Under the pieces are notes generated by a model that saw only the letters and a program-made list of their open reading frames with translations, was not told the DNA's origin and did no database searches. The position numbers were made by a program, and so were the translations under genes. Shown here piece after piece: positions 10,037 to 60,949 of a stretch of DNA of 64,000 bases; the stretch's first letter is position 1, and each line of letters starts with the position of its first letter. Origin of the DNA: Candidatus Poribacteria bacterium (lineage in GTDB: Bacteria > Poribacteria > WGA-4E > GCA-2687025); assembly GCA_028818695.1 (NCBI GenBank), contig JAPPNK010000020.1:64632-128631 (forward strand), read 5' to 3'.

Positions 10037-12433
10037 ATGGATTTTCCGAAGGGGCGGTCTTTTAGTTTGAGAATGTTGTTGCCGTTTAGGGTTGGCGTCG
10101 CCCTCTCCTTGCTCTGTTTCTTTGCGCCGGCGTTGGGTCTGCGCGCCGAAGAGGATCTAGAGGATCTCTACGTTGCGCGGTGCGTCTTCTATTCGGACGG
10201 GCGCGTCGTCCGTTTTGACCGCATGCCGATTGTGGCGCGTCTTGGAAAAACGCCTCCGAGCGTGGACGCGGAGCGGTTTGAAAAGGCGTTTCATGAAGCG
10301 GCTAAGATCTGGGAAGAAGCGTCGGGCGGCGTCGTCCGCTTTCGATTTGCGGACGATTCGGAGGAGCATGTGGACCTGCCTGTCGCTTGGATCACGCATC
10401 TTCCTGGGCGCGGGCGGGAGCGTCATCTTGGCAGGGCGGTTCTCTCGCGTTTGACGGGAAGCCCGGACAGCTTCCATGTCAAAATGGAGATTGGCGTCTA
10501 TGACCGGGAGTCGGGGCGCGAGCTGACAGACCAGGAGGCGTTGACCGTCTGCCTGCATGAGTTAGGGCATGCGATCGGGCTTTGGGGTCACAGCGACCGT
10601 GAAGAAGATATTATGTCGCCCGCTTCTGCCGCGCCCGCCCCGACTCAGCGCGACGCGGACACCCTGCGCGCCATTTATGAAATGCCGGTGAACGCGCCGC
10701 TGCATGAGCCGGCGATGCGGGAGCTGCGCGGCGAGATCGAAGAGCGGCCGGACGATCCCGCCCCGCGCTATCTTCTTGGGTCTGTCGCGCTGGACGCGGA
10801 GCGGTACGACGAGGCGGTTGAGGCGCTTCAAGCGGCGCTGAAGATAGACCGATTTCACATGGCAGCGGGCGAAAAACTTGTCATGGCGTATCTCGAGGCG
10901 GAGCGGTATGACGAAGCGGCGCGTCAGCTTTACGACGGGCCGCTTTTCAGCGCGGAGCTGTATAACAACGCCGGCATTGTGTTCGCTGAGAAAGAAGCCT
11001 CCGAAGACGCTCTCAAGGCGTTTCAACAAGCTCTCGATCTGAAACCGACGATGGAAGCGGCGCGGCGAAATCTTGCGCGGGTTTATGCGCGTATCGGGGT
11101 GGACAAGATCAAAGCGGAGGAAACGAAAGCGGCGTACGACGCCTTTCGGCAGGCTTGGGAGCTGGACAAGCGCGCCGCCTATGGGCTTCAGCTGGGTTCA
11201 ACGCTGGGCTTGATGAAACGGCATCTGGAAGCCGCGCGCGTCTATAAGCAGGTTTTGGGGGAGTTTCCCGACAATCGGGACGCGCGGATGAACCTAGCCG
11301 CCGCTTATAACAATCTGGGCGTGGGCGCCAGCGAAAAAAAGCAGTGGGAAAGAGCGCTCCGCTACTTTGATCAAGCCTCCGAAGCGGACCCCGATTTTGA
11401 AATGAGCGTTCAGAATCGCCTTGCGGCCCTCTGGCAATGGGCGTCTTCTTTAGAAACGGCGAACCCGGCAAAGGCGGTCAGCTTATACCAAGAATATCTC
11501 TCTGCGGTTCCGAGCGCCTGGGAGGCGCATGCGCAGATCGGAATGATTTACAGCCGGGCGGAGGCGCACGATAAAGCGGCGAAGGCGTATGAAGAGGCGC
11601 TGCGCCTGAACCCCGACCGGGAGACGGTTCGGCGCAACCTTGCCATCGTCTATTACAAACGCGCAAATCAGCTGTTGGAATCGGGGCTGAGCGAAGAGGC
11701 GGCGGCGTATTTTTTACAATCGATCCAAACGGATGCGAGCCTCGCCGGTCCGTATCAGGGGCTGGCGGCGGCGTATGTGAGGTCGGACAAATGGACGGAG
11801 GCGGCAAACGCCCTAGAAGAAGCGCTGCGCCGTAAACCGGACGACGAATGGGCGCGCAAATGGCTTTCTGCCGCGGCGATTGAGCTCGGAAATGCGGCTG
11901 TTGCGCGGGAAGATTTTGAAGCCGCTGTACGGGAGTTTGAACGCGCGCCCCTTGAAACGCGCGACGCGCGCGTGAACGGCATGCTTGGCTTTCTTTACAC
12001 GAAGTTAGAACGGTATGATCGGGCGGTTGATTCGCTTGGACGCGCGTTGCTGGCAAATCCGAAGAATGAATCGTTTCGGAATAATCTGGAGTTCAACAGA
12101 AGAGCGGTCAAAGACATTTTGAAGCGCGACAAGTCGTTCCGATGGCGCAGCGTATGGATACGTTTGGAGGCGTACCGCCTCGCCTCTTTGATCGGAAGTA
12201 AGATGAAAAAGGGCGATCTGGAGAAGTTTGACCGGTTCCTACAGATAGAGCTGGAGGCGGAGGAGAAAGACGCCGAGGAGGTCGCATTGACTGTCGGAGC
12301 GATACAGGATTGCGCTTTGTTTGCCGCAGAGAAGGGGCGCGCGTCTTATCCGGGGCTGGCGCGCGGGATTGCCGTTAAAGCGCTGCGGTATGATCGCCGG
12401 CATGAGGGGTTGGCGCAGTTTTTGGGGGAATAG
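10037..12433 (+). CDS. Secreted metzincin-like zinc metalloprotease domain fused to tetratricopeptide (TPR) repeats
   Basis: Signal-peptide-like N-terminus; HELGHAIGLWGH (HExxHxxGxxH) with downstream Met; multiple TPR-like repeats in the C-terminal 550 aa. Track ORF starts at TTG 9974; ATG at 10037 preferred. Confidence 0.7.
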   Translation: MDFPKGRSFSLRMLLPFRVGVALSLLCFFAPALGLRAEEDLEDLYVARCVFYSDGRVVRFDRMPIVARLGKTPPSVDAERFEKAFHEAAKIWEEASGGVVRFRFADDSEEHVDLPVAWITHLPGRGRERHLGRAVLSRLTGSPDSFHVKMEIGVYDRESGRELTDQEALTVCLHELGHAIGLWGHSDREEDIMSPASAAPAPTQRDADTLRAIYEMPVNAPLHEPAMRELRGEIEERPDDPAPRYLLGSVALDAERYDEAVEALQAALKIDRFHMAAGEKLVMAYLEAERYDEAARQLYDGPLFSAELYNNAGIVFAEKEASEDALKAFQQALDLKPTMEAARRNLARVYARIGVDKIKAEETKAAYDAFRQAWELDKRAAYGLQLGSTLGLMKRHLEAARVYKQVLGEFPDNRDARMNLAAAYNNLGVGASEKKQWERALRYFDQASEADPDFEMSVQNRLAALWQWASSLETANPAKAVSLYQEYLSAVPSAWEAHAQIGMIYSRAEAHDKAAKAYEEALRLNPDRETVRRNLAIVYYKRANQLLESGLSEEAAAYFLQSIQTDASLAGPYQGLAAAYVRSDKWTEAANALEEALRRKPDDEWARKWLSAAAIELGNAAVAREDFEAAVREFERAPLETRDARVNGMLGFLYTKLERYDRAVDSLGRALLANPKNESFRNNLEFNRRAVKDILKRDKSFRWRSVWIRLEAYRLASLIGSKMKKGDLEKFDRFLQIELEAEEKDAEEVALTVGAIQDCALFAAEKGRASYPGLARGIAVKALRYDRRHEGLAQFLGE

Positions 12434-18194: not shown

Positions 18195-19355
18195 CTATGA
18201 TAGCGCCGATTCAGGCAGCAGTCGCAAAAACGCTTCATTTGCAAGCAGAACGCCGCGCCGCGTCAAGCGCAGCGCCCCGTCAGCCAGCTTCGTCAAGCCG
18301 AGGCGGGTTATCTGCTCTATCTCCGCTTGGAAATCGTCCAACAGGTTGAGGCCGTATCGGCGGGCGTATTCTGTTAAGGGAACTCCGCTGCGCATTCGCA
18401 GCCCCTGCCGAATTGTTTCAGCCCGCGCCGCCTTGCCGGCGAGCCGCTCCCGTTCAACGATCGGGTCGCGCCCTTCCTCAATCCGCTTGATGTACGACCT
18501 TGTCCCGCGCGTGTTTGCTGTGCGCTCCCCGTTCAGGTAGCCGCATGCCCCCGGACCGATTCCCGCGTGCGGTTTGTTGCGCCAGTAACGCAGATTATGC
18601 TCGCATTCGCTGCCTGGCTTGGCAAAATTCGACAATTCGTAATACGGATACCCTGCCCGCTCCATCTCATCCAGCGTCCATTCGTACATGTCGGCTTGAA
18701 GGTCCTCGTCGGGAAGGGACAGGCGGCCTTGGCGGTTCCAGTAGTGAAACACGGTTTTCGGCTCAATCGTCAGGTTGTAAACGGAAAGATGTTCAGGGTC
18801 AAGAGAGAGGGAGCGCCGCGCGTCCTCCTGCCATTTCCGCATCGTCTGACCTGGGAGGGCGAACATCATGTCGAGGTTGATGTTTTCAAAGCCGGCGTTC
18901 CGCGCGTTCTGGTAAGCGCGGTTGATCTGCTCTGAAGAGTGCGTCCTGTCAAGCTGTTTCAGGGCTGCGTCATCGAAGGTTTGCGCGCCGATGGACAGGC
19001 GGTTCACGCCCGCGTTTCGATAGGCGCGCAGGCGCGGTTCATCGGCCGTCTCCGGGTTCGCTTCAAGGGTGATCTCCGCCTGCGGTTGAATGTTGAAAGA
19101 GCGGCGCAGCGCGTCCATGAGCCAGCCCATCTGCCGGCCGTCCAGCAGCGAGGGAGTTCCTCCTCCGAAAAAGAGAGTCTTGACGGCGCCTTGAACCTCC
19201 GCTCCGACGCTCTCCGCTTCCGTCTCCAGAGCCGACAGAAACGGATCCATCAGATCGGGGCGCAGCGGATAGGTCGCAAAGTCGCAGTAACGGCATTTGC
19301 GCAAACAGAACGGAATATGGACATAAAGGCTGATGTCAGGGTTCAAGGGTTCCAT
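18195..19355 (-). CDS. hemW: Radical SAM family haem chaperone HemW (oxygen-independent coproporphyrinogen-III oxidase-like)
   Basis: 386 aa; CLRKCRYCDF radical SAM motif near N-terminus; HemN-like C-terminal domain. Confidence 0.8.
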   Translation of the reverse strand: MEPLNPDISLYVHIPFCLRKCRYCDFATYPLRPDLMDPFLSALETEAESVGAEVQGAVKTLFFGGGTPSLLDGRQMGWLMDALRRSFNIQPQAEITLEANPETADEPRLRAYRNAGVNRLSIGAQTFDDAALKQLDRTHSSEQINRAYQNARNAGFENINLDMMFALPGQTMRKWQEDARRSLSLDPEHLSVYNLTIEPKTVFHYWNRQGRLSLPDEDLQADMYEWTLDEMERAGYPYYELSNFAKPGSECEHNLRYWRNKPHAGIGPGACGYLNGERTANTRGTRSYIKRIEEGRDPIVERERLAGKAARAETIRQGLRMRSGVPLTEYARRYGLNLLDDFQAEIEQITRLGLTKLADGALRLTRRGVLLANEAFLRLLPESALS

Positions 19356-20382
19356 ACCTGTTCATGATCGGTTTGATATGGTCAAAGCGAATCCAGCGCC
19401 GAAGCGACCGCCGGGGAGCGTTCGGATCGTTTGACCAGTAGATCCAGACCGCCTTTCCCTTGACAACATCATACGGCACCGGTCCCCAGGCGCGGCTGTC
19501 CTGCGAGTTGAGCCGATTGTCGCCGATCGCAAAGTAATGGCGGTCCGGCACCTTGAAAGCGGCGTCTTCCGGTATGCTGCGGTAGGGACGGCCGCGCGCA
19601 AATGTCCACCCCATCGTCTTGGTGTTTTGATACAGGACGCCGCGCATGATTCTCCCTATCCGATTGCTCGCCTCAACGATGTAGTACTCTTTTACAGGGA
19701 TTCGGCGGTCGTACTCCCTGCCTTTCGCTCCGATGCGCAGCCGATAATTTGTTCCGTTTTCCATTGTCATGGCGGTCGGCTCTTCGTCCAGCAGCTGCGC
19801 CTCAACCTCTTCCCGTTCGATGAACTCTTGAACCGATTTCCAGGCGTCGGGCTGCTCCAGATAGTACGGGACTAGCGACGGATGGGATCTAAAAGGCGGA
19901 AAATGGGAGCCTGAATTTTTGTTTAGGAACGGCTCATTGTTGGCATACGGAAGCGGCTTGGCGTACTCTTCGTTTAAAAGCCGCTTGCCGTTGATGAGCA
20001 GCGGGCTGCCGTCTGAGGCGATCGTGTCGCCCGGCGTTGCGACGACCCGCTTGATAAAATGCTCTAGCGGGCTGTGTTTCGGGCTAAAGACAAACACATC
20101 GCCCGCCTGCGGTCCGCGGAAGTCGAAGAGGCGGGTGGAGGTCGCCGGCAATTTGGCGCCGTAGCTGAATTTCAGCACCAAGACCATGTCGCCGTTGAAG
20201 AGCGTATTTTCCATAGAGCCTGAAGGGATCTTATACGGCTCGGCGATAAACGGGCGAATAAACCCGAAGACCACGATAAACGCCATCATGAGTATCTGCG
20301 CCCAGTCCATGATGACGGAATTGCGCACGTCTATCTTTTTTTTGGCGGGCGCTTCATTGGGCGAGCGGTTTTGTTTAGACAT
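19336..20382 (-). CDS. lepB: Signal peptidase I
   Basis: 348 aa; N-terminal TM segment, catalytic Ser in PSGSMENTL, Lys in KRVVATPGD, GDNRxNSxDSR box; directly downstream of lepA. Confidence 0.85.
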   Translation of the reverse strand: MSKQNRSPNEAPAKKKIDVRNSVIMDWAQILMMAFIVVFGFIRPFIAEPYKIPSGSMENTLFNGDMVLVLKFSYGAKLPATSTRLFDFRGPQAGDVFVFSPKHSPLEHFIKRVVATPGDTIASDGSPLLINGKRLLNEEYAKPLPYANNEPFLNKNSGSHFPPFRSHPSLVPYYLEQPDAWKSVQEFIEREEVEAQLLDEEPTAMTMENGTNYRLRIGAKGREYDRRIPVKEYYIVEASNRIGRIMRGVLYQNTKTMGWTFARGRPYRSIPEDAAFKVPDRHYFAIGDNRLNSQDSRAWGPVPYDVVKGKAVWIYWSNDPNAPRRSLRRWIRFDHIKPIMNRYGTLEP

Positions 20383-27778: not shown

Positions 27779-28009
27779 CGTTATTCCCCTCCGTTTATTC
27801 GGCAACGCTTTAAGAATAGCAAATAAATGTTGGAAACGCAAGCGCAGTCGTTAGCCGGCAGTACCTGAAGGCGGCGGCGCTGCGCTGGAGCCGAATTTAG
27901 ACCGCCTCAAGTTTCTCCTCCAACCCCGATCTGACCTCATGCTGAAAGTTGGGACAATTGAACGACCAAAGCCTTTATTCATGGGAAAAAGGCGTCGTCA
28001 ACCAGGCCG

Positions 28010-28036
28010 TCATTCCCGCGCAAGCGGGAATCTAGA
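28010..28036. repeat. Palindromic repeat unit GTCATTCCCGCGCAAGCGGGAATCTAG (family member)
   Basis: Inverted repeat ATTCCCGCG / CGCGGGAAT around a short loop, in the dapA/thioesterase divergent intergenic region; related copies elsewhere in the window. Confidence 0.7.
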
Positions 28037-28129
28037 GGCGCCGCAGAAGACGTCTGCGTTCGCATGCCGACATGTCCCAAATTAAGATGTAAGGTCAGCG
28101 ATAGGTTGACTCAGGCGCCGTTTCTGCGT

Positions 28130-29334: not shown

Positions 29335-29731
29335 ACGGGGGCCACCAGTCGGGGTTTTCGCGGATAGGGGCGGACAGCTCTGCCTCGGCTCCGAGGCGAT
29401 ATTTGTCGGGCGCGCTGTCGTTTTCAGGAGCGATGCCAACCAGCCCGCGCGCGTTGTCAAAAATGAACTGCCCGCCCCATGGCGTCTCAAGCATATTGGG
29501 CGAGTCGAGATACGGCCCGCGCCAGCCCTCCGCGCCTGGATCATTCAGCAGATGATTCGGATCCATGCATTGCCGCCCTGTTTGACGCGCGAACCGCGCC
29601 GCGGCGTCCGAGATCGTTTCCAGGCGCGTTGCCGCCGCGTTCACCTTTCGGCTGTCCATATAAACCGGTATCGTGAACGCCCCCGCCAAGACCGCCGCAA
29701 CAGCCAATACAGCCGCCTTCAAGATTCGCAT
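29315..29731 (-). CDS. GspG-like pseudopilin C-terminal domain protein with Sec-type rather than prepilin-type N-terminus
   Basis: C-terminal block WRGPYLDSPNMLETPWGGQFIF resembles GspG; the N-terminus (MRILKAAVLAVAAVLAGA) lacks the G-F-T-L-I-E prepilin leader. Confidence 0.5.
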   Translation of the reverse strand: MRILKAAVLAVAAVLAGAFTIPVYMDSRKVNAAATRLETISDAAARFARQTGRQCMDPNHLLNDPGAEGWRGPYLDSPNMLETPWGGQFIFDNARGLVGIAPENDSAPDKYRLGAEAELSAPIRENPDWWPPYDPDDP

Positions 29732-30309
29732 TCGTCCAATTTCTCCTTCCACGCGCGCAGAATGTTCAACGCTCCGTCAACATCGCCCTTCCGCAGACGC
29801 TCTAGAGCCGCTTCGTCCGCCTGTCCGCGCGCCTCGCCCATCAAAGCTGCCAGCTCCTCATATTCATGCCCGTACCGTTCTTCAAGTTCCTCCCGCATCT
29901 GCTTCGCCAACGCTGGGCTAAGTCCGCCCGTCGAGACGGCGACCGTCAACGCCCCGCGCTGAACCGCCCCCGGCGTATGGAACGTCGCGTCGTCAAGCGC
30001 ATGGGCGCTGTTGACCCAGATCCCCAAGCGCCGAGCGCAGCGCGCCATCGATTCGTTCACAGCGCGCGAATCGGTCAACGCGAACGCAAGCCGGAAACCG
30101 TCCAGATCGCTCGGCTCAAACGCGCGCCGCAGCCATCGAAACGCGCCGGACGCCTCCAGCTTCGTCAGCCCCTCGTTCAGCGTCGGGCTAACGACGGTCG
30201 CCTTCGCGCCGCATGCCAACAGACGCCGTATCTTCCGCTCCGCCACCTTCCCGCCGCCGGCGACCAGGGCCGCCTCCCCCCGCAGTTTTACAAAAATAGG
30301 ATACATCAA
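29719..30309 (-). CDS. Precorrin-2 dehydrogenase / sirohydrochlorin ferrochelatase (sirohaem synthase N-terminal domain-like)
   Basis: PIFVKLRGEAALVAGGGKVAERKIRRLLACGAKATVV Rossmann-type motif characteristic of the CysG N-domain / Met8 family. Confidence 0.7.
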   Translation of the reverse strand: MMYPIFVKLRGEAALVAGGGKVAERKIRRLLACGAKATVVSPTLNEGLTKLEASGAFRWLRRAFEPSDLDGFRLAFALTDSRAVNESMARCARRLGIWVNSAHALDDATFHTPGAVQRGALTVAVSTGGLSPALAKQMREELEERYGHEYEELAALMGEARGQADEAALERLRKGDVDGALNILRAWKEKLDECES

Positions 30310-30371
30310 AACGGACGCCTCCCTCTGACCTTGTCCTTAAGTTGGACATCCTCAAGAGCCTAATTTCGCTG

Positions 30372-30522
30372 GTAGCCTCTACAGGCGACGATATACGAAA
30401 ATCCTGTTCAAATCGGGCAGATCGTCATTCCCTCGAAAGCGGGAATCCAGAGTTCTCCCAGACAGCCTTCGCATTCTAAAACGGCTCTTTAAAATCAAAA
30501 TCATCGCCTATTAGAGACTGCC
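30372..30522. repeat. MITE-like repeat element, copy A (about 150 bp, short terminal inverted repeats, embeds the palindromic unit at 30424-30450)
   Basis: About 93% identical by eye over 150 bp to the copy at 60361-60538; ends GGCAGCCTCTA ... TAGAGACTGCC are inverted repeats; lies in the divergent intergenic region. Confidence 0.7.
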
Positions 30523-30594
30523 ACTTCGCTCCTTCGGTTGACATGCCGTTCAAAAAAGCGCACCATGTCTCCAACGACCTATTGTAGAGAGCGA

Positions 30595-31617
30595 ATGATG
30601 AACGCGCAACAGACATCTCCCATACCGATCACAATCCTATGCGGATTCCTCGGCAGCGGCAAAACGACTCTCCTGAACCGCATACTCAGCGAAAACAGGG
30701 ACTTAAAAACGGCCGTCATCGTGAACGAATTCGGCGAAATCGGCATCGACAATCAGCTCATCGAAAGCGTGGATGAGCTGAACGGCGTCGTAGAACTCAA
30801 CAACGGCTGCATCTGCTGCACCATCAACGCCGATCTGCTAGAGACCGTTCATAACCTGCTTGAAACGAGAGACGGGCAGATCGATTATATTCTCATCGAA
30901 ACGACCGGGCTTGCGGATCCGCAGCCCGTTGCGCAGACGCTCTGGGTTCCAGAAATCGTCGAAAAGGCGTTCATCGATTCCATCGTTACGATGGTGGACG
31001 CGGTGAATCTGCCGCAGGCGATGGAAGAGACGCGGATCGCCGAAGCGCAGATCGCCTTCGCCGACTTTATCGTTCTCAACAAGGTCGGCGCGGCGAAGAC
31101 GAAATCTGTTCAGCGCATCGAAAAACAGATTCTCGCTCTGAACCCGTATGCGCGCATCCTGAAGACGAACTACGCCGACATCGACCTGAATCTGATTTTG
31201 GACGTCGGCGTCTTTCAGTTGGACGAACCGACCGGCGAAGACGCGCATGAACATGATCATGAGCATGACCACAACCATGATCATGACCATGAACACGAAC
31301 ATGAGCATGACAGCGCGGAAAAAGGGTATGCGTCCGCCTCGTTTGCGTTGGATCGTCCAATGAAGGCGCAGGCGTTTAAATCCTTTTTAGAGCAGATGCC
31401 GCGAACTATTTTCAGGGCGAAGGGCGTACTCTGGTTTTTGGGAGAGGATCGGCGCGCGCATTTCAACCAGGTCGGCAGCAGCGTTATGATGGAATGGGGA
31501 GCAAAATGGGGAGAGACTGCGCAGAGCCAAATCGTGTTCATTGGGCAAAAATTTGACGAGGACGCGCTTCGCAAAAGCCTAGAGAGCTGCCTTGTCGATC
31601 CGCCGGCGCCGCGCTAG
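30595..31617 (+). CDS. CobW/COG0523-family GTPase (putative zinc metallochaperone) with His-rich insert
   Basis: GTPase motifs GFLGSGKTT, CxCC (GCICCT); His/Asp/Glu-rich stretch HEHDHEHDHNHDHDHEHEHEHD; start at internal Met. Confidence 0.85.
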   Translation: MMNAQQTSPIPITILCGFLGSGKTTLLNRILSENRDLKTAVIVNEFGEIGIDNQLIESVDELNGVVELNNGCICCTINADLLETVHNLLETRDGQIDYILIETTGLADPQPVAQTLWVPEIVEKAFIDSIVTMVDAVNLPQAMEETRIAEAQIAFADFIVLNKVGAAKTKSVQRIEKQILALNPYARILKTNYADIDLNLILDVGVFQLDEPTGEDAHEHDHEHDHNHDHDHEHEHEHDSAEKGYASASFALDRPMKAQAFKSFLEQMPRTIFRAKGVLWFLGEDRRAHFNQVGSSVMMEWGAKWGETAQSQIVFIGQKFDEDALRKSLESCLVDPPAPR

Positions 31618-38795: not shown

Positions 38796-38848
38796 GCCGC
38801 CTTTTTTAAAAACAAAATGCGAAATGCGGACGTCGGCCGCTGGACTCT

Positions 38849-38872
38849 GGATTCCCATTTGCGCGGGAATGG
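38849..38872. repeat. Palindromic repeat unit variant GGATTCCCATTTGCGCGGGAATGG
   Basis: Same ATTCCC...GGGAAT inverted-repeat architecture as the other units, opposite orientation, in the intergenic region upstream of the sulfatase gene. Confidence 0.55.
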
Positions 38873-38975
38873 CGGTTTGCCGGCAACCAAGCTTGCGGAA
38901 CGGGGCGTTTCAGCTTAGTACTAATGCGCGCTGGCGCCCAGAGATACTGACTGCCCGACCTCATAAGGAGACCGC

Positions 38976-45996: not shown

Positions 45997-46181
45997 TGAG
46001 CATCGTCTCCTTATGCTGTGAATCTGCTTCAAGAGAAAGTGTAGCGTTGCGAGCCGCATTTTGAAAGGCTTTGTCTGCTGATCCTAAGGCTTTGTTGGGC
46101 AGGTCGGCATGCGAACGCGGACGTCGTCTGTTGGACTCTAGATTCTCTCCCTGTTTCCACAAGGAAATGGCTTGAGCGGGA

Positions 46182-47159
46182 ATGCGTCGCTGCGGCTTTT
46201 CCGTTGGTTATTGCGGTTCTTTCGCAATGTCCCACTTTAGGCATGAGGTCGGAAGCGGGCAGTTGGCAAAGCGGCGATTTTACTTTAACATAGAGAAACG
46301 GACGAATGAGGGCTGCCGATTGAAACAAAGCTCGACACAGGATCATTACGCCGCGCTGGGCGTTTCAAGAGACGCCTCGGAGCAGGAGATACGCGGCGCC
46401 TTCCGGACGCTGGCGAAGCGGAGGCATCCAGACAAAAACCGCGGCAATCCGCGCGCCCATGCGCTGTTTGAAGAGATCGTAGAAGCGTATCGAACCTTGA
46501 CCGATGAAGCGAAACGGCGCAACTACGACCGCGAAACGAAACCCCGCCCTGAAACGCCCCATACCCTGTGTTACGACCTCTTCGCGCTCCTTCTGGCGGA
46601 GCAGCCCGAAGAGGCGCTGGAGACGCTCGATAAACTGCTGATGCGCCTCAAGGCGTCCGTTTGCGCGCTCAATCTGCGTCTGTATCTGAACGAGGAGGAC
46701 GCGGCAGACTGCGAGTTTCTCATGGCTGAAGCGCTGGAAAACGCCGGGCAGCGCGACGAGGCGGTCTTGCTGTATGAACGCAGCCTGATGCGAGAGGCGC
46801 GCCGCCCCCACTTCCGCAAGTTTGCCGAAGAGATACGACTGCGCCTGCGCCGCTTGCGTTTCGACAGGCTCGTCGAAAAGGCGGGCGGAGAAGCCGGCAG
46901 GCAGATGAAGCCGAGACAAGCGCTGGAGCCGATTTTTGAGCTCGGCGCGACGAATAAGCAGCGGGCGGATTACTGTCAAAAACTGGCGGACGCCCTCAAA
47001 GAGGCGGGGCATATGAAATCGGCGCGCCGCTTTCTGGACGAAGCGCGCTGTTTCTCAACCGTTCTCTTTAACAAGAAGTCTCTCCCCTCTCAAAACGGCG
47101 CGCCGCGCCCAGAAGCGGAGGAACGACACGCCGAACTACAAGCTGACGCTGGAATATGA
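46182..47159 (+). CDS. J-domain (DnaJ-like) protein with alpha-helical C-terminal region
   Basis: Canonical J domain DHYAALGVSRDASEQEIRGAFRTLAKRRHPDKN; start codon uncertain. Confidence 0.65.
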   Translation: MRRCGFSVGYCGSFAMSHFRHEVGSGQLAKRRFYFNIEKRTNEGCRLKQSSTQDHYAALGVSRDASEQEIRGAFRTLAKRRHPDKNRGNPRAHALFEEIVEAYRTLTDEAKRRNYDRETKPRPETPHTLCYDLFALLLAEQPEEALETLDKLLMRLKASVCALNLRLYLNEEDAADCEFLMAEALENAGQRDEAVLLYERSLMREARRPHFRKFAEEIRLRLRRLRFDRLVEKAGGEAGRQMKPRQALEPIFELGATNKQRADYCQKLADALKEAGHMKSARRFLDEARCFSTVLFNKKSLPSQNGAPRPEAEERHAELQADAGI

Positions 47160-59823: not shown

Positions 59824-60198
59824 ATGGCAAAAAAAGCGCAGTTGACCGACCTTGTCGGCGCCGATCAGATCGAAGAGGAGATCGTTGCGGCGCTGAAGAC
59901 GGTGTACGACCCTGAGATACCTGTCAACATCTACGATATGGGTCTCATCTACGAAATTGAGGTGGACAAGGCGGGCGCGGCGACGGTGAACATGACCCTG
60001 ACAAGCCCCGCATGCCCCGTCGCGCAGTCGCTTCCGCTGGCGGTGAAGGACAAGGTCGCCTCGGCTCCGGGCGTGACGGAGGCGCAGGTGAATGTGGTCT
60101 GGGATCCGCCGTGGACAATGGAGCGGATGTCGGACGAAGCGAAGTTTGAGCTGGGGCTTATGGATGTGGAGCCTGTGGAGCGGGATCGTCGGCGTTAG
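59824..60198 (+). CDS. sufT: DUF59 / MIP18-family Fe-S assembly protein (SufT-like)
   Basis: 124 aa; VYDPEIPVNIYDMGLIY...TLTSPACP typical of DUF59 proteins; last gene of the suf cluster. Confidence 0.6.
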   Translation: MAKKAQLTDLVGADQIEEEIVAALKTVYDPEIPVNIYDMGLIYEIEVDKAGAATVNMTLTSPACPVAQSLPLAVKDKVASAPGVTEAQVNVVWDPPWTMERMSDEAKFELGLMDVEPVERDRRR

Positions 60199-60234
60199 GG
60201 ATTTTTAAGAAACGCCCAGCGCCCAAAACCGCCG

Positions 60235-60283
60235 TCATTCCCGCGAAGCATGTCCTCGTTAAAACGGGGAGCGGGAATCCAGA
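60235..60283. repeat. Expanded palindromic repeat unit (GTCATTCCCGCG + 27-nt insert + GCGGGAATCCAG)
   Basis: Same arms as the 27-bp unit with a longer loop; immediately upstream of MITE-like copy B. Confidence 0.6.
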
Positions 60284-60360
60284 TTCAAGCAGACAGCGTC
60301 CGCGTTCACAACCAGATTTATCCTACTCAAGGGTTAAGTTGAGCGCTCCGTTTATGCAAC

Positions 60361-60538
60361 AGGCGTCTTCTCCAGGCAGCCTCTACAGGCGATGATGTAC
60401 GAAAATCCTGTTCAAATCGGGCAGATCGTCATTCCCGCGAAAGCGGGAATCCAGGTTCTCCCAGACAGCCTCCGCATTCTAAAACGGCTCTATAAAATCA
60501 AAATCATCGTCATATAGAGACTGCCTGGAGAAGACGCC
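60361..60538. repeat. MITE-like repeat element, copy B (about 178 bp, 25-bp terminal inverted repeats, embeds the palindromic unit at 60428-60454)
   Basis: Termini AGGCGTCTTCTCCAGGCAGCCTCTA ... TAGAGACTGCCTGGAGAAGACGCCT are inverted repeats with one mismatch; interior about 93% identical to copy A at 30372-30522. Confidence 0.75.
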
Positions 60539-60694
60539 TAATCGTCATTTCCGACGACGCCCAGGTCTCTAATGATGACCTTAACATCGGAAGCGTCGGG
60601 GGACGCAGTTGAGTACCGCTTTTCGTGGTCGGCGTAGTGCGGCGTCCACAGCTGATTTAACCGCAAAAAGCTTCTTGTTGCGCGCAGCGCCTGC

Positions 60695-60949
60695 TCAATC
60701 CTTGTCCGCAGAGTACGCCTTTCTCGCTTCTCTCTCTTTTTCTGCCATCAGCTCGCGGATGCGCCTTAGGTCTAGGCGGGCGCCCTTTGCCCATATCTGC
60801 GCCTCATCAGAATGCAAAAACGCGCGCGCGTCCTCCCGCATCTCCGCCGGCGCGGACGAGCCTGGCAGCGCGTCTCGGCACGCCGCCGCCATCACCGCCT
60901 GCGCCATCGTTCCGTACCGTTCCCAGGTTTCTTTCCGCTGCGTATCCAT
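60695..60949 (-). CDS. Small hypothetical protein (84 aa), coding status uncertain
   Basis: Only sizeable ORF in the 0.9-kb non-coding stretch between sufT and the kinase gene; no motif. Confidence 0.25.
   Translation of the reverse strand: MDTQRKETWERYGTMAQAVMAAACRDALPGSSAPAEMREDARAFLHSDEAQIWAKGARLDLRRIRELMAEKEREARKAYSADKD

Follow-up and report, generated by a model that had tools for sequence, protein, structure and literature searches.

Two intergenic spacers of the same Candidatus Poribacteria genome carry nearly the same short sequence, which raises the question of whether this sequence moved to both places or was copied from one to the other. The source organism is an uncultured sponge symbiont, and the window is the whole stretch of 64,000 nt that was analyzed. 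A first-pass annotation of the window had read the two segments as a non-autonomous miniature element. Our follow-up agrees with that reading, since further copies, target-site duplications and empty sites were all found, and we consider it very probable that the feature is a MITE of 151-152 bp. The features discussed below are listed in Table 1.

Table 1. Features of the two loci and related elements (window positions, unless a locus of another genome is named).
Feature	Location	Strand	Details
Solo REP-like module	28008..28100	+	palindrome + tail ending ..ATGTCCCAAATTAAGATGTAAGGTCAG; palindrome and proximal tail homologous to MITE center
Left target-site duplication, copy A	30363..30370	.	ATTTCGCT
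MITE copy A	30371..30522	+	152 nt, GGTAGCCTCTA...TAGAGACTGCC
Left terminal inverted repeat, copy A	30371..30393	+	GGTAGCCTCTACAGGCGACGAT
Central dRS3-like palindrome, copy A	30423..30450	+	CGTCATTCCCTCGAAAGCGGGAATCCAG
Right terminal inverted repeat, copy A	30499..30522	-	reverse complement GGCAGTCTCTAATAGGCGATGAT
Right target-site duplication, copy A	30523..30530	.	ACTTCGCT, 7/8 identical to left
Separate older REP-like module beside copy B	60232..60345	+	not part of MITE; present in S2, S3 and L047
AGGCG, outer anchor of converted tract	60361..60365	.	target flank, complementary to CGCCT before insertion
Former left target-site duplication, copy B	60366..60374	.	now TCTTCTCCA
MITE copy B	60375..60525	+	151 nt, GGCAGCCTCTA...TAGAGACTGCC
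Central dRS3-like palindrome, copy B	60427..60454	+	CGTCATTCCCGCGAAAGCGGGAATCCAG
Right target-site duplication, copy B	60526..60533	.	TGGAGAAG
CGCCT, partner of 60361-60365	60535..60539	.	target flank
MITE copy C	L066 4868-5018 (S3)	reversed	ZnuA/AP_endonuc_2 spacer
Diverged relative	L067 27-165 (P2)		homologous ends, central palindrome, T-rich flanking repeats
Diverged relative	L067 6330 onward (P2)		left end and arm fused to double palindrome and REP-like module tail

The two copies lie in the same orientation, as annotated, and the earlier estimate of about 93% identity is matched by a measured global identity of 93.5% (143/153). The left parts (30371-30450 and 60375-60454) are 95% identical and the right parts (30452-30522 and 60455-60525) are 92% identical. 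In copy B, homology with copy A starts at 60375 and ends at 60525, and nothing in copy A corresponds to the 14 nt that lie farther out on either side; the extent of 60361-60538 given for copy B in the first-pass annotation was thus too wide. One palindromic unit had been noted in each copy, and the palindromes were located at 30427-30446 and 60431-60450. With 151-152 nt and longest ORFs of 40-46 amino acids (aa), the element is small and non-coding, as is usual for a MITE (less than ~600 bp). When the called ORF of copy B (40-41 aa) was searched against 5.8 billion proteins, only the query itself was returned. Copy A is located between a divergent sirC-like gene (29719-30306, minus strand) and cobW (30598-31617, plus strand). 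Copy B is located in a 496-nt spacer between FeS_assembly_P (59824-60198, plus strand) and a convergent 84-aa ORF (60695-60949, minus strand); FeS_assembly_P is the last gene of the suf cluster, and copy B is thus downstream of the suf operon. Logan contigs assembled from short reads of this sample (L048, L050, and L053) stop inside the element, at window positions 60407 and 30482. Identical runs of at least 39 nt in two copies suffice to interrupt an assembly graph, and in practice the element fragments short-read assemblies at sites A and B.

Five related genomes were sampled around both loci, and their identities are given relative to the window. Strain S2 is represented by a 3.66-Mb HiFi contig (ERZ25069412 ctg853967_33x_l; loci L058 and L065; 98.2-98.7%) and strain S3 by a 701-kb HiFi contig (ERZ25069580 ctg105417_10x_l; loci L066 and L069; 97.8-98.2%). 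L047 is a low-coverage contig from the sample of S2 (97.9%). The more distant genomes are P2 (PANK22-1 scaffold_3; loci L055 and L067; ~90%) and P3 (circular 3.95-Mb contig ERZ21830300 ctg717555c; locus L054; ~90%). In S2, copy A (L065) is identical to that of the window at 151 of 152 positions and copy B (L058) at 150 of 151. The cobW gene next to copy A is called with 228 aa in S2 (L065 9029-9715), compared with 339 aa in the window (30598-31617) and 344 aa in S3, which may reflect a truncation or a frameshift.

The element ends were compared among these copies. They are imperfect inverted repeats of ~11-24 nt with the core GGCAGTCTCTA / TAGAGACTGCC, which is perfect in copy B of S2 and pairs at 9-10 of 11 positions in the other copies, in line with a MITE. 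In copy A of the window, the terminal 11 nt pair at 9 of 11 positions, and the imperfect inverted repeat runs on to ~24 nt. In copy B, a 25-nt inverted repeat (60361-60385 / 60515-60539) is complementary at 24 of 25 positions. The 25-bp repeat with one mismatch that was annotated for copy B therefore exists, but its outer 14 nt are flank and not element end. Conversely, copy A had been thought to retain only about 11 bp of such a 25-bp end, whereas both copies end alike and the stem of copy B was extended later.

At both loci, occupied and empty alleles could be compared. At site A, the window and S2 read ..GAGCCTA ATTTCGCT (152 nt) ACTTCGCT CCTTCGG.., whereas S3 (L069) reads ..GAGCCTA ACTTTGCT CCTTCGG.., with a single 8-mer and no element. 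At site B, the occupied allele of S2 (L058) reads ..ACAGGCGA CGGAGAAG (151 nt) TGGAGAAG ACGCCTAATCGTCAT.. (AGGCGA and ACGCCT flanks), and the empty allele of S3 (L066) reads ..ACAGGCGA TGGAGAAG ACGCCTAATCGTCAT.. (AGGCGA-TGGAGAAG-ACGCCT). The L047 contig ends at site B with ..ACAGGCGA TGGAGAAG G, in which the left flank is AGGCGA and the G is the first base of the element. This end (..AGGCGATGGAGAAGG) was considered as a further empty site and rejected, since comparison with L058 shows that L047 has the occupied allele with its left duplication intact and that the contig stops at the element. The site B duplication in S2 and L047 is (C/T)GGAGAAG / TGGAGAAG. Thus, sites A and B each show a precise empty site together with an 8-bp direct duplication abutting GG(C/T)AG...CTGCC, so that the target-site duplications and the empty sites in relatives, for which the first-pass annotation had proposed a search, are both present, the latter in a ~98%-identical strain. 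As for the outgroups, the site B spacer lacks the element in P3 (L054, 51 nt) and P2 (L055, 125 nt), and a different sequence is present at site A in P2 (L067), showing that the insertions are derived. In principle, the empty alleles could be precise excisions; this would still imply mobility, and the outgroups favor insertion. To the right of the copy B target, ~130 nt of the window (60549-60675) are unrelated to the corresponding part of L066 (reverse strand, ~10270-10420). This block separates the MITE-bearing alleles of the window and S2 from the empty allele of S3, and the sequences on both of its sides align well.

When ~320 kb of Poribacteria DNA were searched for the 11-nt end with at most one mismatch, every known end was recovered, along with three new ones. 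The further copies that had been suggested as a check were thus found: a third copy in S3 (copy C) and two diverged family members in the sister species P2. The 64-kb window contains two copies, the 40 kb of S3 another one, and the 40 kb of the sister species two diverged members. Site C is empty in the window strain (L057), where the spacer comprises 131 nt, compared with 291 nt in S3. At site C, both halves of the duplication are degenerate, matching the empty 8-mer CGTCAGTT at 7/8 (left) and 5/8 (right) positions, and the length arithmetic fits 8 bp. Hence, 8-bp target duplications directly at the ends and single-target empty sites (L069 for A, L066 for B, and L057 for C) are documented, as expected for a MITE, and at least three independent insertions occurred within one species, two in the window (A and B) and one in a sister strain (C), each of which is polymorphic among ~98%-identical strains. 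The right flank of copy C (L066 5019-5030, TATCGGTTAG versus CGTCAGTTGC in L057) contains five substitutions in 10 nt, far above the ~2% strain divergence, and this cluster may reflect a further mutation next to the end of a MITE.

These data also bear on the explanation that the pair arose without transposition, by local or segmental duplication or by gene conversion between intergenic regions that already shared the palindrome. Just two copies are present in the window, and the shared palindrome could seed recombination. However, the ends of the two copies fall on identical nucleotides, the 8-bp direct repeats beside them differ between the two sites, the sister strain has precise empty sites with one 8-mer each at both loci, and the third copy lies at an unrelated locus in S3. 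Duplication is already refuted by the empty sites and the target duplications, and we assign it practically no probability. 

The constant 8-bp duplication at inverted-repeat ends instead points to cut-and-paste or copy-and-paste by a DDE-type transposase acting in trans, the DDE type of the enzyme being our inference. Such a transposase would bind the ends, cut the target with an 8-bp stagger, and integrate the unit there, and repair of this cut would leave the 8-bp direct duplication. Paralogous copies are 91.5-93.5% identical and orthologous copies 99.3%, indicating that the sources of the copies had already diverged from each other, which is the usual situation in MITE families.

To place the family more widely, we used parts of the element as queries. 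The left-arm 18-mer CCTGTTCAAATCGGGCAG gave 45 matches in 185,579 representative genomes, all of them chance matches in unrelated taxa; this query is too strict, as the third copy differs there by one base. A left-arm 23-mer gave no match in a metagenome scan. The terminal-repeat pattern matched five times by chance in JGI metagenomes, the best match (L064) being in a coding region of an AT-rich organism, and searches of IMG/VR with terminal-repeat and right-arm patterns gave chance matches or none. According to the 18-mer and 23-mer scans, the copy number may be low and the family narrowly distributed. An autonomous element with matching inverted repeats, another of the proposed checks, did not turn up: neither such an element nor a transposase with matching ends was found in ~320 kb of Poribacteria DNA, JGI metagenomes, or IMG/VR. 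A literature search on MITEs in Poribacteria returned no papers.

We also considered that the element is a structured non-coding RNA gene or a cis-regulatory element (terminator, attenuator, or small RNA [sRNA]) that was duplicated because it is functional. Copy B is located downstream of the suf operon and is predicted to fold into a very stable hairpin (-43.3 kcal/mol; z = -7.4), and copy A has one weak sigma-70-like match facing cobW. In contrast, the predicted fold of copy A (-15.9 kcal/mol; z = -0.06) is no better than that of shuffled sequence, a search of the element against Rfam returned no family, and there is no terminator-like T-run within the element. A promoter and terminator scan of the element revealed nothing convincing. 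Moreover, the contexts differ (a divergent promoter region versus a convergent 3' spacer), and the element is absent at both loci from the ~98%-identical S3, showing that it is dispensable there. We therefore regard a functional RNA or regulatory element as very improbable and return to the MITE.

The left flank of copy B differs from what insertion with a direct duplication predicts. The 9 nt at 60366-60374 (TCTTCTCCA) are the exact reverse complement of 60526-60534 (TGGAGAAGA). At the same positions, the sister alleles have A(C/T)GGAGAAG (ACGGAGAAG in L058 of S2 and ATGGAGAAG in L047), and the rewritten 9 nt are found in the window strain only. The TCTTCTCCA allele is also present in the Logan assembly L048, which was made independently from the same reads. 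In the empty allele of L066, AGGCG and CGCCT already surround the single 8-mer. The outer 14 nt of copy B thus consist of 5 nt that were already complementary in the target and 9 nt of rewritten left duplication. Two other readings of this structure were rejected. The outer 14-nt inverted repeat is not a longer element end, since the repeat at this place is direct in S2 and L047, and copy B was not inserted into a pre-existing hairpin, since the empty site has only 5 bp of complementarity. The left inverted repeat of copy B in the window retains a C/T mismatch (GGCAGC versus GGCAGT), showing that the conversion went no further than the element boundary.

The conversion was most likely caused by template switching at the hairpin. 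This mechanism is suggested because the tract is bracketed by two complementary anchors, the signature of template switching at a quasipalindrome. Intramolecular template switching during replication would have rewritten the 9 nt left of copy B, with the terminal repeats as the inner anchor and the pre-existing AGGCG/CGCCT complementarity as the outer anchor, and the direct target duplication would thereby have been turned into an extension of the hairpin stem. The single-strand hairpin with the extended stem is the one for which -43.3 kcal/mol is predicted in copy B, compared with -15.9 kcal/mol in copy A. Template switching is established to homogenize and extend inverted-repeat arms, so that an imperfect inverted repeat becomes a longer, perfect one (PMC7202029, PMC8604942, PMC13100816). 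The present case resembles such quasipalindrome mutations in that the 9-nt block exactly complements the opposite arm and the anchors existed beforehand; it differs in that the converted tract is a transposon target-site duplication, a flank disguised as a terminal repeat. For annotators, this calls for caution, since a template switch can make a target duplication look like an extension of the terminal repeat and mislead boundary calling.

The center of the element is a palindrome with a wide distribution. The dRS3 repeat of Neisseria is defined as ATTCCCNNNNNNNNGGGAAT, which the copy B palindrome CGTCATTCCCGCGAAAGCGGGAATCCAG fits (PMC1797815). In the window, five matches to ATTCCC-N8-GGGAAT were found, compared with 0.22 expected by chance. 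When 37 nt of copy B were used as a query, N. gonorrhoeae chromosomes matched at 32 of 32 positions (CGTCATTCCCGCGAAAGCGGGAATCCAGGTTC, 60427-60458) in at least 40 places per record. The same query matched Azospirillum at 30 of 30 positions and Photobacterium in at least 40 places, and it also matched sphingomonads, Ralstonia, Cupriavidus, Legionella, Francisella, and others. dRS3 and NIME have been described as Neisseria-specific (PMC1797815). Thus, distant phyla share the sequence of a palindrome described as a hallmark of Neisseria, which here lies inside a MITE.

In the Poribacteria loci, the palindrome is found once per ~2.5-16 kb and in both orientations; in the window, it is also seen at 28008-28035, 30423-30450, and 38847-38881 (minus strand). 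It is an abundant independent repeat of these genomes, often followed by a conserved ~60-nt tail (..CCAGAGTCCAnCAGACGACGTCCGCGTTCGCATGCCGACATGTCCCAACT..). The MITE center (the palindrome and ~35 nt) is homologous to this ~90-nt REP-like module. In the older module beside copy B, a second hairpin repeat (GCATGTCCTCGTTAAAACGGGGA) interrupts the dRS3-like palindrome, after which comes the tail ..CAGACAGCGTCCGCGTTCACAACC... Similar "long-loop" palindromes, with dRS3-like halves separated by a second hairpin repeat (GCATGTCCTCGTGAAAACGGGGA), were seen in the window at 60244-60283 and 46110-46190 (minus strand) and in L054 at 19485-19545 and 19670-19735; they look like nested insertions or mosaic recombination at the palindrome. 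L054 additionally contains (10873-11049, 19300-19780) a 29-nt tandem array (CCCCCTCTTTGAAGGGGGGAATCCAGAAA, six copies) and, where convergent genes meet, NIME-like clusters made up of several palindromes with short spacers. The distal end of the REP-like tail (ATGTCCCAACTTnA..N6-8..AGGTCAG) was found at 30326-30352 and 28072-28100 of the window, at 13655-13690 of L054, and at 6478-6510 of L067. It often lies 40-120 nt upstream of a gene of the same orientation, at sirC directly before the ribosome-binding site, and could be a promoter or a regulatory motif borne by the repeat.

A 93-nt REP-like module (tail and palindrome) is present in S2 at ACTGAC^GCGG (L058 6176-6268), and the corresponding site is empty in the window strain (L057 6255-6265), indicating that the REP-like module is mobile, too. 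This insertion falls within the 8-mer that was duplicated by the MITE at site C in S3, and the 8-mer may be a hot spot.

An alternative is that the copies are NIME- or REP-like mosaics, spread by recombination at the dRS3-like palindrome (site-specific, which has been proposed for dRS3 in Neisseria, or by RAYT/Y1 enzymes) with no DDE transposase acting on the terminal repeats. In line with this, the central palindrome is of the dRS3 type and does not differ from Neisseria copies, it is abundant and clustered in the sister genome L054, the sequence from L067 6330 onward resembles a chimera in which the left half of a MITE meets a REP-like module at the palindrome, and the 93-nt module is itself an insertion polymorphism in S2. 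However, the three insertions break at the terminal inverted repeats and not at the palindrome, with 8-bp duplications, and the element has one central palindrome, not a dRS3 on either side of a spacer. IS110-type, Y1 (IS200/IS605, RAYT), and homologous-recombination routes are not known to give such junctions. A mosaic of this kind is improbable, and the evidence continues to favor a MITE. It probably arose when a REP-like module was captured between two transposon ends, an origin suggested by its center, which consists of the palindrome and ~35 nt of REP-like tail.

A bolder idea, which we consider unlikely, is that the dRS3-type palindrome is the functional core of the element and not a passenger. 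MITEs would then carry a recombination or target site across phyla for a dRS3-specific recombinase, which would be IS110/Piv-like, as in the case of the filamentous phage of Neisseria. If the idea were true, mosaics such as the L067 6330 chimera would result from recombination at this site, and the NIME system would be linked with a repeat that is pan-bacterial, being present in Poribacteria, Azospirillum, Photobacterium, sphingomonads, and Legionella.

Altogether, target duplications, empty sites, and multiple loci prove recent strain-level transposition in a candidate phylum of sponge symbionts. The element is a clear-cut but unremarkable case of a familiar type of mobile DNA, a recently active MITE from a phylum that has received little study. 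Two side observations are more unusual, namely that a target duplication was converted into an inverted repeat and that a dRS3-type palindrome is identical across phyla.

Among known systems, Correia elements (CREE / nemis) are similar in that they have a full length of ~156 bp, are bounded by inverted repeats, are intergenic, and are thought to be transposon-like (PMC1797815). Their host genomes also bear dRS3 palindromes. In contrast to our element, Correia elements are not known to contain a dRS3, and no sequence similarity between the two was seen. Correia elements duplicate TA, whereas the duplication found here is 8 bp; the ends GGCAGTCTCTA do not seem to resemble the Correia terminal repeat.

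With NIME (dRS3-RS-dRS3), the element shares a central palindrome that fits the dRS3 motif ATTCCCNNNNNNNNGGGAAT (PMC1797815) and matches N. gonorrhoeae at 32 of 32 positions, and Poribacteria genomes show mosaic intergenic clusters of this palindrome. However, a NIME consists of a spacer with a dRS3 on either side and is believed to spread by recombination, whereas a single dRS3-like palindrome lies in the middle of our unit, with unrelated inverted repeats (GGCAG...CTGCC) as its boundaries and 8-bp duplications outside.

Like REP and REPIN sequences, which are mobilized by RAYT, the embedded palindrome is short, GC-rich, abundant, intergenic, and found in both orientations. Unlike our element, REPINs (palindrome pairs accompanied by a RAYT gene) have no such terminal inverted repeats and no target duplication. 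In the gene tables of the loci compared here, no RAYT-type Pfam family was listed. PATEs derived from IS200/IS605 have subterminal hairpins, no terminal inverted repeats, and no duplication, whereas both of the latter are present here.

With bacterial MITEs, which are non-autonomous derivatives of DDE insertion sequences, the element shares the size of ~150 bp, the non-coding sequence, terminal inverted repeats, a target duplication of fixed length, the intergenic location, and presence/absence polymorphism. By its 8-bp duplication with GG ends, the element would fit several IS families (ISL3, IS6, IS256, IS1595, and IS1). It differs from bacterial MITEs in its core, which is a widely shared REP-like palindrome and not a remnant of a transposase gene.
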